Made by a program: the position numbers and the translations under genes. This document shows, in pieces, positions 16,344-63,876 of a DNA stretch of 64,000 nt. Source of the stretch: Eledone cirrhosa. Taxonomy: Eukaryota. How positions within the stretch are numbered: position 1 is the stretch's first letter; every line of letters starts with the position of its first letter. The stretch covers positions 314,092,001 to 314,156,000 of the forward strand of contig OZ024743.1 in the NCBI GenBank assembly GCA_964016885.1. Reading direction: 5' to 3'. A model generated the notes under the pieces. The model searched no databases. It was not told where the DNA came from and saw nothing but the letters and a program-made list of their open reading frames with translations.

Positions 16344-16394
<51 letters not shown>

Positions 16395-16397
<3 letters not shown>

Positions 16398-16592
16398 AGA
16401 AAAACCACAGGCCTCCCATCTCAATTCTACTTTTGAAACGCAAAAGAACTGCGAAACCGGTAAAGGAACCAAATAAATATATATTTAAAAAAAAAAGACT
16501 CCAGATGCATTTTCGATTTTATCTTTTCTCCTTATACATTCACTCGTGTATGAGACTTCGGTTATTTTTCATTTTGTAAAAAAAACCCTCAC

Positions 16593-16600
<8 letters not shown>
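16395..16600 (+). mobile_element. About 205-bp non-coding HHR-bearing element in (TA)n, second copy at 62441-62651
   Basis: Both copies start gtgagaaaaaccacag and end cctcactttctaat. Degenerate HHR at 16430-16465 (core TTGAAAC). Confidence 0.8.
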
Positions 16601-16639
<39 letters not shown>

Positions 16640-36291: not shown

Positions 36292-36388
<97 letters not shown>

Positions 36389-36389
<1 letters not shown>

Positions 36390-36703
36390 TTGAAAAAGAA
36401 GGAAAAGAATGACTTCACTTGTAGTGTTAAATAATTTAATTTAATTTTATAATATTATAATATTATGAGTTGGTAGATCTAGTAAGTTCTTTGTTAACTT
36501 CGATGGGAAGAATTTTAAAGATTCCTGGTTAACTTTGTTGGAGAACTTTCTTGCATTCGTCGGTGGCGATTGTCAAACTGAGATCTGGTTGTGTTGAGAT
36601 GTGTGACTATATATATAAGAGAGTTTTCGATGTGTCTGGGGGTGTGGCGTGTAGTGTTAATGAGTGTTTATGATGATTTGGAGGAATCAAAGCATACACA
36701 CAC
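36389..36703. repeat. About 315-bp repeat with an inverted copy at 40118-40437
   Basis: Reverse-complement alignment by eye over the whole length. Confidence 0.85.
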
Positions 36704-37226
36704 GAGAACATTCCGGATTAAAGAAATAACCTCAGAACCAAATGAAGAAACCAAAATAAGACAAAATCTACCACTCCAAGAAACTTGAGATAGAAATCAC
36801 TCTACTCCGTCTAAGAATGCCAAAATTTAAAGAAAAATTCGAAAAATAAGACACCACCATTAGAGAAGAATTAAACAAAAGAAGCATCGGTAATGTACTA
36901 GAAGAACTCTTTGACCTTTGGAAGAATGATACAACCAGAGAAGAATTGAAATCAAAGAAAATCTTGGAGTCAAGAACACAATAGCTACAAGAATATGAAA
37001 AAAACTATGGCAAAGTCCAAATAAAATCCAAAAAAACAAATCCATAAGAAACCCTCAAATTCGGGAATAACACAAGAAATGAAGAATTCTCACACAATAA
37101 ACACGCATCAACCAGAATCGGAGAATCCCAAACACACAATTATACACAAACCAAATACCGAACACCAGAACCAGATACAACTATCAAATCTCCAACAACA
37201 ATTACCAGCGGCAAAATCAAAGACAT

Positions 37227-38351
37227 ATGATGACCGAACGGAATAACAGAAATAGACACCCGTATATCAACCACCAAACAAAATACTACCGCTCAGAAAA
37301 TGATCAACATGAAATGCCGGCAAACAGAATATTTCACCACAACAGAAACACCGCTACCTCAAATGGGAATTATTTTTTAGAACAAGGTGCCTCCCACCAA
37401 ATGAAAGGAAAAAAGGAAACAAACACCACCCTTCAAGTGGCACCCGACGAGAAAACTCCAAAGGAACTAAAAATAATCAACATATCGGCCAAAAAACTAA
37501 CAACAGGAAATAAAATTGCTAGAAAATGGACTGAAATTCACACCCAATCCAAAGCAGATCAAGCCGACCTTATAAAAGACACAGAAGATTTTTGTCAAAA
37601 ATTATGTCTAGGAGAATTCTTCCAAAGTGTAGAATGCGAGGGGGAATCACTAGTGAGCGACAAAAAGAACTTCAGACCTCCATTAAATAGAGACAAACAC
37701 CTGGAGGATTACATAATCTGCCTCCGACGATCGGCACAGTCAAATACTGCAGAGACAAAACACAAACACAACATCCCTACAGACCAAATGCAAACACTAA
37801 ACAAACTACAAAAATACTCCTCAATAATCATAAAAGAAGCGGACAAAGGTGGAGCAATCATCATCATGATTGACAAGGATATGGTCCTACAACAGTTGAA
37901 TAACGAGGATCTTTACAGAAAAATCAGCCAAAACGAAGAAAGAAAATCGATGATTAAAGTAGGTAAGCTGACGACCAAGTACCAAGACAACCTCACACTA
38001 AAGGATATCAATTACTTAACCAACTTCGAAATGAAAATCAGAAACATCTAAGGTTTAACGAAGGTTCACAAATCCAGAGAAATACAAAACAACATAAAAG
38101 GCAAAAATATATCATATGTTGAAGTACCAAAACCGACAGATTTAAAATTACGTCCAATTGTTGCTGGTCCAGCCTCAAGCACACAACGTCTAAGCAACCT
38201 ATTAGACATCGTACTGAAATCCTTATGTAAAAAAGTGCCAAGCTTCATAAGAGATGATATGGAATTCCTGAACTATATCCCCCAGAAAGTACACCAAGAA
38301 ACAATCTTAGTCAGCTTTGACGTAACAAGCTTATATACTAACATCCCACAT
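37227..38351 (+). pseudogene. PLE reverse transcriptase N-terminal half (disrupted, truncated after motif A)
   Basis: IIIKEADKGGAIIIM; GLTKVHK...LRPIVAGPASSTQRLSNLLDIVL...FIRDDMEFL...LVSFDVTSLYTNIPH. Confidence 0.88.
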
Positions 38352-38640
38352 CATTCTATTATACATCGATGTGGACTGCTATTTCTAATATCCCACTTTT
38401 CACCTCTTAATAATTTGTGTGTGAAACACGCTGGCTGTGAGTGCTTTTGACGGGAACGAAAAGATTGGTTTTCTATTCTCCCGCCTCCACGTAAAATTAG
38501 TAAATCGGTGGCTAGTCGAGAGAGTCGTATCGGGTGCCAGTTGCTAATCGCTTTACCGTGTCGGTTGTCACAAACAGTCATGACCGGCATGGGTAGGGGG
38601 TTTGGATTCTGTCGATCGATTGGCTATTTATTAGGCTATA

Positions 38641-41255: not shown

Positions 41256-41336
<81 letters not shown>

Positions 41337-42116
41337 ATGAATGTATATATAGTGCATTTGGTAATACACTGTATGCTTAATTAAAAGCATTTTGATGACC
41401 TTACGCTATTGTTTTAAAGTAGTGACTATGTCACTTCCTTTTTCAACAAACAAAGGGAGATAAGCACTCCCTTCGATTGTTGAAAATTATGAATGTTGGA
41501 TTCTTATAGAATTCCAGTAATAATCAGGAACTGATTATACAGACCGGTTGCCGAACCAGCAAACATTGAAAAGTATAACTTGTGCTCTGAAATAGCGATG
41601 TATGTATGAATGTATATATAGTGTATTTGGTAATACACTGTACGCTTAATTAAAATCATTTTAAAGACCTTACGCTATTGTTTTAAAGTAGTGACTTACT
41701 TCTTTTTTCAACAAACAAAGGGAGATAAGCTGACAGATCTCTGTTTCATACTGTTGGCATTCCTCAGAGCTTATCACTCCCTTTGCTTGTTGAAAACTAT
41801 GAATGTTGGATTCTCATATAATTCCAGTAATAATCAGGAACTGATTATACAGAGCGGTTGCCGGTCCAGCAAAAACTGAAAATTAGAATTGGTGCTCTGA
41901 AATAGCGATATATATATATATGAATGTATATATAGTGTATTTGGTAATACACTGTATGCTTAATTAAAAACATTTTGAAGACCTTTCGCTATTGTTTTAA
42001 AGTAGTGACTATGTCACTTACTTCTTTTTTTCAACAAACAAAGGTAGATAAGCTGACAGATCTCTGTTTCATACTGTTGGTATTCCTCAGAACTATTTTA
42101 AAACAATAGCGTAAGG
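41337..42116 (-). mobile_element. Retrozyme-like tandem array (about 320-bp unit, about 2.5 copies)
   Basis: Units start at 41337, 41606 and 41920. HHR in units 2 and 3. Short inverted segment at 42097-42116. Abuts (TA)n. Confidence 0.85.
41724..41775 (-). ncRNA. Canonical type I hammerhead
   Basis: GATAAGCT-CTGAGGA-ATGC caaca GTAT-GAAA-CAGA ga TCTG-TC-AGCTTATC, with stem I extended past a bulge. Confidence 0.92.
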
Positions 42117-58182: not shown

Positions 58183-58494
58183 TTCCTCTGCACCTCCTCC
58201 AATCTCGTCTATGGATTTCGCTGCACGGAGTGCAGCACAACCTACGTCGGACAGACCGGACTTCGCCTGGCGGATCGATTCACGGAGTACCTCCCAGATA
58301 TTCTTCTCGGTGGGAGTTCCCCCATCGCCCACAACTTTGGTTCCCCTGGACACTCCGCCCATCACTTCACCGTCTGTGGCAGGATCCAATGCCATGGAAC
58401 CCCCGCAACACACCTCACGGTAGGGCAACACACCCTTTTCACCCTACAAACCCACCCACCCCCTGACCTGAACTACCCAACACTCTTCCTTTAG
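58180..58494 (+). pseudogene. GIY-YIG endonuclease of a different PLE lineage, open frame without ATG
   Basis: FLCTSSNLVYGFRCTECSTTYVGQTGLRLADRFTEYL...PIAHNF..PGHS...LFTLQTHPPPDLN. Followed by a C-rich UTR to about 59810. (TA)n on both sides. Confidence 0.85.
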
Positions 58495-61850: not shown

Positions 61851-62474
61851 ATGTTTGTGTGTATGTGTGTGTTTTTGTATGTATATGCATATGTGCGTCT
61901 GTGCGTGAGTGTGTGTGTGTATTAGGAGAGTTAAATGCATTTCATGACATGAGTGAATATTAGAGAATTTTCGGTTCGTTAGACTTTCCAAAAATAGATT
62001 TACAACGGGCTGTTATTGATAAAAAATGCATTAGATACAATAAGTTGATTATAATTCGGACAAAAGTAACTGAGAGCCTGACATGAATTATATTTGCATA
62101 GATGGATCTCCGATGATCATATTATTGTGTTGCTAAAATTATCGAAGCTGCTAAGTGAATTACACCTTTCTCAATTCTCTCACTCACAAACCTAATTTCA
62201 GACAAATTCAACAATTTCGATGCAATGATACACACTTATAAATATGTAAGTCAGATAAGAACGCATACACACACACACACACACACATATACTGTATATA
62301 TATATATATATATATATAAAAGGAAAAAATGAAACGAAATTTCATTTCTCACTCTTAGTACGGCTGTTACTTAATTATAAGTATGTATACGTACATACAT
62401 ATATGTATACAGACGTACAGTAGTATGTATATATATATATGTGAGAAAAACCACAGACCCTCCATCTCAACTCA

Positions 62475-62512
62475 CCTTTTGAAAAGCAGAAGAACTGCGA
62501 AACCGGTAAAGG
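62475..62512 (+). ncRNA. Compact hammerhead, U3-A8 core, in the 205-bp element 62441-62651
   Basis: CCTT-TTGAAAA-GCAG aagaa CTGC-GAAA-CCGG-TA-AAGG. All stems are perfect. Confidence 0.85.
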
Positions 62513-62644
62513 AACCAAATAAATATATATATTTAAAAAAAAAATAAGACTTCAGTTGCATTTTCGATTTCATCCCTTTTTCTTTATACTTCCACTCATG
62601 TAGGACACATCGGTTATTTTTCATTTTGTAAAAAAAAACCTCAC

Positions 62645-62687
<43 letters not shown>

Positions 62688-62960
62688 CACACATATATAT
62701 ATGTACGTATGGATTCACCGAACATTTATTATAATGCTCGGTGTGTTTGTATATATATGTATGTACGTGTACATACTTATATTTAAGTAACAGCCGTACT
62801 AAGAGTGAGAAATGAAATTTCGTTTCATTTTTTCCGTTTATCGTTTTCGGTACCCCGGCCGATTAACTCACTCGATATGCAAATTAGGCTGCTCAGCCGT
62901 TAATATGCATAAGGAAAGTATATACTTTCAGACGTTCAACCATCTGGCAGGAAGGTATAC

Positions 62961-62999
62961 GTTGCTGACGATAGCCAATAAGCTTGAAACTAGTACAGC
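62961..62999 (+). ncRNA. Type I hammerhead (second copy at 63386-63428)
   Basis: GTTG-CTGACGA-tAGC caataa GCTt-GAAA-CTAG-TA-CAGC. Confidence 0.88.
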
Positions 63000-63876
63000 A
63001 TTCTTTTGTCAGTGTTGAACAAATGACCAACGATGGTTGCTAGACACTGTACGGCTTAATTCGGGATGTTTGTTTACAAACACACCGAGCATTATAATAA
63101 ATGTTCGGTGAATCCATACGTACATATTTATATGTGTGCATGTATGTATATATATACATACTACTGTACATCTGTATACATATATGTATCTACGTATCCA
63201 TACTTATATTTAAGTAACAGCCGTACTAAGAGTGAGAAATGAAATTTCGTTTCATTTTTTCCGTTTATCGTTTTCGGTACCCCGGCCGATTAACTCACTC
63301 GATATGCAAATTAGGCTGCTCAGCCGTTAATATGATTAAGGAAAGTATATACTTTCAGACGTTCAACCATCTGGCAGGAAGGTATACGTTGCTGACGATA
63401 GCTAATAAGCTTGAAACAAGTACAGCGTTCTTTTGTCAGTGTTGAACAAATGAGCAACGATGGTTGCTAGACACTGTACGGCTTAATTCGGGATGTTTGT
63501 TTACAAACACACCGAGCATTATAATAAATGTTCGGTGAATCCATACGTACATATATATATGTGTGCATGTATGTATATATATATACATATACATACTACT
63601 GTACGTCTGTATACATATATGTATGTACGTATACATACTTATATATATACATATTTATTAAAATAACAGATTAAAGGTAAAGCAATGAATAGCTGCTTTC
63701 ACCCTTAACGGGATCTTCTGAAACTTAAAAAAATCAATCTGTGAACGCAGAACCGATTTTTGCTTAAACTTTAATCTGTTATTTTAATAAATATCTGATT
63801 TACGATTTTTATATATTTGATATATATTTATCCTTATCGAGCCCTCTTTGGATTTTAGTCTTCAAATTTATTATTA

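Follow-up and report, generated by a model that had tools for sequence, protein, structure and literature searches.

A U3-A8 hammerhead in probable solo front-end copies of an abundant Penelope-like retrotransposon

Introduction

Hammerhead ribozymes with U at position 3 and A at position 8 have been described in Penelope-like elements (PLEs). For the Cercyon PLEs of Schistosoma mansoni, the text of Cervera and de la Pena 2014 (PMC4209133) gives about 1,300 hits for this U3-A8 variant and describes hammerheads that are mostly single motifs, with close opposite-strand pairs, a palindromic helix III and a dependence on dimers. A comparable motif in the same text showed no cleavage as a monomer and low cleavage as a dimer, and the dimer cleavage of hammerheads has been reviewed (PMC6765202). 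In minimal hammerheads, a trap in which C3 pairs with G17 is reported to impair the ribozyme (PMC3884650).

In the report on the Anolis carolinensis Poseidon element PAc (Frangieh et al. 2024, PMC11167929), an optional tail lies between two internal starts of reverse transcription, cleavage is dispensable for insertion in vitro and no RNA ends are found at the cut site. Solo and inverted pLTRs, tails and TATA-Inr motifs are documented in PLEs (Arkhipova et al. 2013, PMC3846280), and a frameshifted ORF1 is noted in the legend of Fig. 1 of Craig et al. 2021 (PMC8557442). Tandem retrozymes have been tied to pLTRs (bioRxiv 10.64898/2026.07.22.740005), and Penelope families are reported from an octopus genome in a paper whose passages on them leave ribozymes unmentioned (PMC13282606). 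Here we describe a U3-A8 hammerhead in a 64-kb window, the whole stretch of Eledone cirrhosa DNA analysed, and its family in the genome searched (G000, 3.0 Gb).

Results

The hammerhead (Table 1) reads CCTT-TTGAAAA-GCAG-AAGAA-CTGC-GAAA-CCGG-TA-AAGG. Its stem I consists of 4 bp (CCTT, 62475-62478, with AAGG, 62509-62512), its core is UUGAAAA (62479-62485, with U3 at 62479 and A8 at 62484) and its stem II, also of 4 bp (GCAG, 62486-62489, with CTGC, 62495-62498), contains the closing pair G10.1-C11.1 and is followed by GAAA. The GUA site occupies 62506-62508, and cleavage is predicted to follow A17 at 62508. The core has the layout of PLE-type hammerheads, namely N3-U-G-A-N-N8-A, GAAA, NUH and a Watson-Crick 3-8 pair. 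A strict descriptor, which asked for a short stem III and for 4 Watson-Crick pairs each in stems I and II, returned this site and no other in the window and nothing in 100 dinucleotide shuffles of it, both strands included. An Rfam scan of the whole window gave no match at the curators' gathering score, which bears out the expectation of a first, sequence-only reading of this DNA that standard searches would miss the motif. The same reading took the palindromic stem III as a sign of dimer-dependent cleavage, and the palindrome fits dimer-type folding: the palindrome cannot serve as a monomer stem because its A-U and C-G pairs would close a 2-nt loop, and in the cofold the 6-bp helix III forms only between two motifs.

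Table 1. Positions of the element, its hammerhead and the related copy in the window.
Feature	Position	Strand	Basis or remark
Type I minimal hammerhead	62475..62512	+	Motif layout, fold, strict descriptor
Palindromic stem III, ACCGGU	62502..62507	+	Predicted 6 bp between two molecules or two copies (cofold)
Probable solo copy: pLTR end, 5′ UTR and tail of a Penelope-like element	62441..62651	+	Repeat comparison
Optional tail between two preferred 3′ ends	62589..62657	+	Ends of 100 sampled copies
(TA)n target microsatellite, 3′ side of first copy	62651..62702	.	
Second, older solo copy, 205 bp, 87% identical to first	16395..16599	+	
Degenerate hammerhead of second copy	16429..16466	+	U3/A8 kept, A9C

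The copy that carries the motif is 211 bp long; the 205 bp originally given for it is the length of the second copy. Both of its ends blur into TA repeats, including a shorter TA run at about 62428-62440 on the 5′ side, and limits as wide as 62439 to 62657 are possible. The preferred 3′ ends of the family fall, in this copy, after ...CTTTATA at 62588 and after ...CTAATATATA. The second copy is enclosed by (AT)n arrays (16347-16394 and 16599-16635). As first described, it shares the ends of the 211-bp copy and retains U3 and A8 with A9C, but the fourth pairs of both stems differ as well, that of stem I being A.G, a common subfamily variant, and that of stem II A.C. Folding prediction on the second-copy sequence did not form the hammerhead fold.

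Around the 211-bp copy lies an abundant host repeat, present as an inverted copy at 62320-62430 and a 427-bp tandem at 62753-63644, and the same repeat flanks element copies in two other loci (L024 and L025). Within the element, a polypyrimidine tract (62560-62606, element nt about 120-165) followed by GTAG/G near nt 163 resembles a splice acceptor by eye, and G/GTAAAG, which shares bases with the GUA cleavage triplet, is a candidate donor. If these sites were real, splicing would be in competition with cleavage. Some PLE families keep a spliceosomal intron in their 5′ UTR. Four contig runs, of unrecorded kind, when compared with L086:944-1800 contained no GT..AG joint and no pile-up of starts or ends, and are uninformative on expression, start site and splicing.

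As judged from its sequence, the element is the front end, detached from the rest, of a Penelope-like retrotransposon that is young, very abundant, protein-coding and autonomous. Among the 30 loci that best match the 211 bp, 8 extend upstream into shared element sequence, which leads to a frame with RT and GIY-YIG domains. One locus (L272) has the order element-ORF1-ORF2-element with a period of 4,672 bp; its two frames are open, and each of the repeats carries a hammerhead. Of the three stretches compared here, the other two, L273 and L274, are without the second hammerhead. Starting instead from ORF1, 10 of 15 start loci carry all or the 3′ part of the element in direct orientation and continue into ORF1, whose ATG lies at element nt 237, and in the other 5 only inverted element pieces were detected. 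The proposal that the element represents a minimal non-coding mobile ribozyme family is not supported: it consists of the pLTR end and 5′ UTR of a coding element.

ORF1 encodes 400 aa with an N/Q/R-rich C-terminal part, and a Pfam search with it gave no match. ORF2 (771-775 aa, the 775-aa frames being in L046 and L047) joins RT to a GIY-YIG domain at the C terminus in one frame, with Pfam matches to GIY-YIG (residues 682-772, E 2.9e-6) and RVT_1 (residues 295-441, E 1.3e-6, just under its cut-off), the motifs DKG, GTAMG, YLDD and YIG, and 771 homologues at E<=1e-30. Between coding copies, identity is about 98-99%. A CGRSNCGTC linker at residue 645 is followed by CKGC at 689 and by two His after YIG; the features of Neptune and Nematis elements, a CX2-5CxxC linker that separates RT from EN, CCHH residues within EN and (TA)n flanks, are thus present, and the linker and (TA)n targets fit that type at the sequence level. 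Also present are the PLE features of a partial-tandem pLTR arrangement (L272), inverted partial copies and two 3′ ends. ORF1 overlaps ORF2 by about 90 nt in the -1 frame (L047:4804-4894; L272:2632-2722), and a U UUU UUA heptamer in the overlap suggests programmed frameshifting. Simple folding gave no support for a pseudoknot downstream of the heptamer (z 0.02), with a tool that ignores pseudoknots.

The GTGAG/CTCAC ends of the element look inverted, as in a DNA transposon of the MITE kind. We rejected this interpretation because the 5′ ends are ragged and continue into the retroelement.

To describe the family, we used a 34-nt core pattern in which positions 3, 7 and 8 were left open. It gave 10,947 exact matches in the genome and its reversed control none; TTGAAAA was present in all 100 of the 10,947 matches that were listed. 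A second sample of 100 copies was drawn with a pattern outside the ribozyme (the first 100 of 12,656 matches, all on contig C1), and among its 85 core-covering copies U3 and A8 were each present in 85 of 85. C3 occurs in only 42 of the 10,947 core-pattern matches, always as C3-A8 and never as C3-G8. The tabulation of positions 3 and 8 that had been proposed thus gives a U3/A8 family, and a CUGANGA consensus was not seen. In the absence of a C3-G8 partner, the family lends the 3-8 pair no covariation support. A subfamily change at nt 34-35 breaks the fourth stem I pair in 39 of the 85 copies, as would be expected if selection on the ribozyme is weak.

Solo copies are many times more numerous than coding ones: the 10,947 and 12,656 exact matches stand against 655 first-look candidates for ORF1 starts, and in one public run the depth on the element was about 500 times that on ORF1, a rough contig figure. 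These numbers, together with the derivation of animal retrozymes from pLTRs in the text of bioRxiv 10.64898/2026.07.22.740005, speak for a mobile ribozyme that is non-coding and independent, much like a retrozyme or SINE, with its own copies as the source of transcripts and self-cleavage as the means of amplification. Several observations make this very improbable. The solo copies have no upstream TATA box, they are dispersed or head-to-head without head-to-tail arrays, their starts lie about 70 nt upstream of the cleavage site rather than at it, and they match the UTR of coding copies at 90-99% identity and share its two 3′ ends. No tandem array of the 211-bp element was found in the 64-kb window, and the copies are solo, head-to-head or the ends of 4.7-kb units.

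The ends of the 100 sampled copies were numbered on L086, position 0 included; members of head-to-head pairs were counted separately, and the 100 are accordingly not all independent insertions. The 3′ ends fall at nt 147 in 36 copies, at nt 213-216 in 59 and elsewhere in 5. Both 3′ end sites are TATA-ending within the element, and (TA)n comes next in the genomic junctions displayed. Of the 5′ ends, 52 lie at -6 to +12, 31 upstream (including 20 that lie outside the examined stretch) and 17 downstream, the last comprising 3 at nt 13-61 and 14 at nt 62-99. Many sampled copies have an inverted partial copy head to head with them.

The first base of a TATAAAA stands 30 nt upstream of the A in AGATGTGAG. 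From this spacing and the clustering of 5′ ends, we infer that the cluster corresponds to the transcription start. A TATA promoter is not universal in these elements, as in Drosophila Penelope the mapped promoter is internal and TATA-less, and the 5′ UTR contains an intron (PMC2377424). The solo copies, that of the window included, would then be complete cDNAs that run from an internal start to the RNA 5′ end. Since they span the GUA site, the template RNA was uncleaved or religated, in line with the in vitro results of PMC11167929, and most solo copies likely derive from uncleaved RNA.

The 5′ cluster could have another origin, as a stop of reverse transcription, a microhomology hotspot or the product of antisense-RNA copying, which would leave the assignment of the parent unchanged. 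Many junctions use the short self-complementary AGATGTG/CACATCT, and in PMC3846280 junctions of head-to-head copies are interpreted as the outcome of self-priming, with antisense RNA as template, a route other than an internal start of reverse transcription. We regard these origins as rather unlikely, because solo copies joined to (TA)n start where the inverted ones do and because the TATA box stands at the canonical distance from the cluster.

The sequence CAACCAGAT occupies element nt -9 to 0, at the putative transcription start. It recurs at window position 36591 on the minus strand, in the inverted segment of another PLE remnant, and at L008:575-592 in an unrelated upstream repeat; in these places the sequence after the motif differs. 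It is possibly an initiator shared by several PLE families.

The lowest-energy fold of the hammerhead pairs U3 with A17 and so extends stem I over the cleavage site. The pair contributes 1.7 kcal/mol in the monomer (-6.4 against -4.7 kcal/mol) and 1.4 kcal/mol in the dimer (-20.3 against -18.9 kcal/mol), and local fold stability did not exceed that of shuffles (z -0.85). Of the perfect U3-A8 hammerhead originally described, the core and stems I and II stand, with the correction that U3 can also pair with A17. By analogy, the U3-A17 pair is predicted to correspond to the inactive C3-G17 trap. Cleavage would be low both because of this pair and because a partner hammerhead, 4.7 kb away in tandem transcripts, is needed.

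Copies that begin at the cleavage site were sought as sequence from nt 69 onward preceded by three non-matching bases. This search gave 66 sites genome-wide, of which 25 of the first 30 were true 5′ ends, or about 55 in all. The control at nt 60 gave 38 sites (15 of 30 true, about 19), and that at nt 50, made with a laxer two-base filter, 91 sites (10 of 30 true by script and 8 of 30 by eye, about 24-30). As the 23-mers for nt 69, 60 and 50 are present in 64, 62 and 49 of the 85 full copies, the corrected excess at nt 69 is about 1.4- to 3-fold. Raw counts of TAT| junctions at the three positions were 35, 6 and 14, and true ends made up 14 of 15, 6 of 6 and 2 of 5 of those inspected. TA-adjacent junctions tallied by hand (48 sites and 50 ends among the first 100 of 404 matches listed) had 31 of their ends at nt 67-73 and the other 19 at nt 44-66, but the search pattern used favours ends near nt 73, and microhomology is offered by the TA at nt 67-68. 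A hand tally of 97 inverted junctions (the first 100 of 173 matches listed, with four near-identical C4 rows collapsed) had no peak at nt 69: counts over nt 46-73 ranged from 0 to 11 per position, with 4 at nt 69 and the maximum at nt 66.

The excess of 5′ ends at nt 69 hints at a trace of cleavage and falls short of proof. Copies that begin there amount to the order of 1% of the family. With about 50-70 copies beginning exactly at the cleavage site, the statement that the template was uncleaved is not absolute. Two nt 69-start copies (L204 and L205, G000:C3:212.89 Mb) are joined to sequence that we take to resemble large-subunit rRNA, perhaps through a template switch.

The hammerhead may alternatively be a vestige, the U3-A8/A17 core being catalytically dead and carried along only as part of the 5′ UTR of a recently expanded element. 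The potential U3-A17 trap, by analogy to C3-G17 (PMC3884650), points this way, as do the weakened stem I in 39 of 85 copies, the 97 inverted junctions among the matches listed with no peak at the cleavage site, and the dispensability of cleavage for insertion in vitro in the text on PAc (PMC11167929). Set against these are the dominant form, in which all core positions, both stems and the palindrome are intact, the departure of positions 3 and 8 from the canonical core in a compensating way, and the modest 5′-end excess at nt 69. On balance, a vestige is a substantial possibility, although not the one that we favour.

The window holds further elements. On the minus strand, 41319-42094 is a tandem repeat of about 323-bp units, about 81% identical to one another, with two type I hammerheads that have the canonical C3-G8 core CTGAGGA (at 42090 and 41767), a stem III of GAAACAGAGATCTGTC and, in the 41767 copy, an 8-bp stem I; a third unit is without the motif. 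In sequence, this tandem looks like a non-LTR retrozyme array. What is left of another Penelope-like family, interrupted by one stop or more, lies at 36380-38384, to which tblastn aligned ORF2 (37% over 310 aa, 37470-38384) and ORF1 (37%, 36781-37005). An inverted pLTR-like segment lies just upstream of it, and a search for a hammerhead near 36576 on the minus strand found no convincing stems. A further GIY-YIG-like fragment is present at 58183-58284.

Discussion

We read the window element as a solo copy that comprises the pLTR end, 5′ UTR and tail of an autonomous Penelope-like retrotransposon. It likely arose when RT encoded by the element copied no more than the front of the RNA into a TA microsatellite, and its U3-A8 hammerhead is predicted to need a dimer for cleavage and to cleave weakly; we put the probability of this reading at roughly 85%. 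In the scheme that we propose, transcription would begin at about nt -4 to -1, 30 nt below the pLTR TATA box, and the GIY-YIG domain would nick (TA)n. Reverse transcription would then start internally at the TATA-ending site at nt 147 or 215, as in anole Poseidon, and synthesis to the RNA 5′ end would leave solo or head-to-head copies with fixed ends. The template would be mostly uncleaved, because most copies span the cleavage site.

A U3-A8 core and a dimer requirement in Penelope hammerheads are already published (PMC4209133), and the element is a further example. With the hammerheads described in that text it shares the pLTR location, mostly single dispersed motifs with some close opposite-strand pairs, a 4-bp helix I, G10.1-C11.1, palindromic positions 15-16, U3-A8 and a predicted dimer dependence. 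Helix II, by contrast, has 4 bp here and 7-8 there, and the extra nucleotide between 9 and 10.1 is missing, so that G10.1 directly follows A9. The 6-nt palindromic helix III is like that of the fly, rotifer and shrimp variants in PMC4209133 and unlike that of Cercyon. The motif here also belongs to one homogeneous family, of about 11,000 exact copies.

The element has in common with PAc, as far as the text of PMC11167929 describes it, two preferred 3′ ends on either side of an optional tail that lies close to the RNA 5′ end, targets that are AT-rich and copies most of which span the hammerhead. It differs in that the hammerhead and the tail, of about 68 nt, lie wholly upstream of ORF1, and in its two ORFs, Cys-rich linker and U3-A8 core. 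The C-terminal GIY-YIG domain, the CX2-5CxxC linker, CCHH-like residues, (TA)n targets and partial tandem, inverted and solo pLTRs recall the EN+ PLEs of the Neptune and Nematis type (PMC8557442, PMC3846280), a likeness by features and not by tree; in the element, ORF1 overlaps ORF2 in the -1 frame at a U UUU UUA. Short non-coding units, a type I hammerhead and a relation to pLTRs are shared with non-LTR retrozymes (PMC7229834; bioRxiv 10.64898/2026.07.22.740005), which are head-to-tail tandems, whereas the element copies are solo or head-to-head with the exact ends of the parent UTR. In the literature covered, which comprised few subscription journals and PMC4209133 aside from its figures and supplements, we found no report of a U3-A17 trap and none of insertions beginning at the cut site of a PLE hammerhead.

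The function of hammerheads in Penelope-like elements is described as unclear (PMC8557442). Two observations go further than the published U3-A8 hammerheads, namely the clustered 5′ ends of copies that span the cleavage site and the U3-A17 pairing. The family is young and has copies with open frames, one core variant only and solo ends that are nearly identical and number more than 10,000. With it, insertions that start at the transcription start can be counted across the genome against those that start at the cleavage site, and a natural U3-A8/A17 core can be put to a clean kinetic test. One tentative idea, which we hold to be doubtful, is that U3-A8 together with A17 acts as a built-in brake, with U3 paired to the cleavage nucleotide and the ribozyme mostly inactive until dimerisation or the element's own protein opens it, and that the 5′-end map records a majority from uncleaved RNA, with starts at the transcription start, and a small excess from cleaved RNA, with starts exactly after GUA. 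If true, this would show in vivo that germline RNA is cut by a Penelope hammerhead and that insertion of the cut product is possible.
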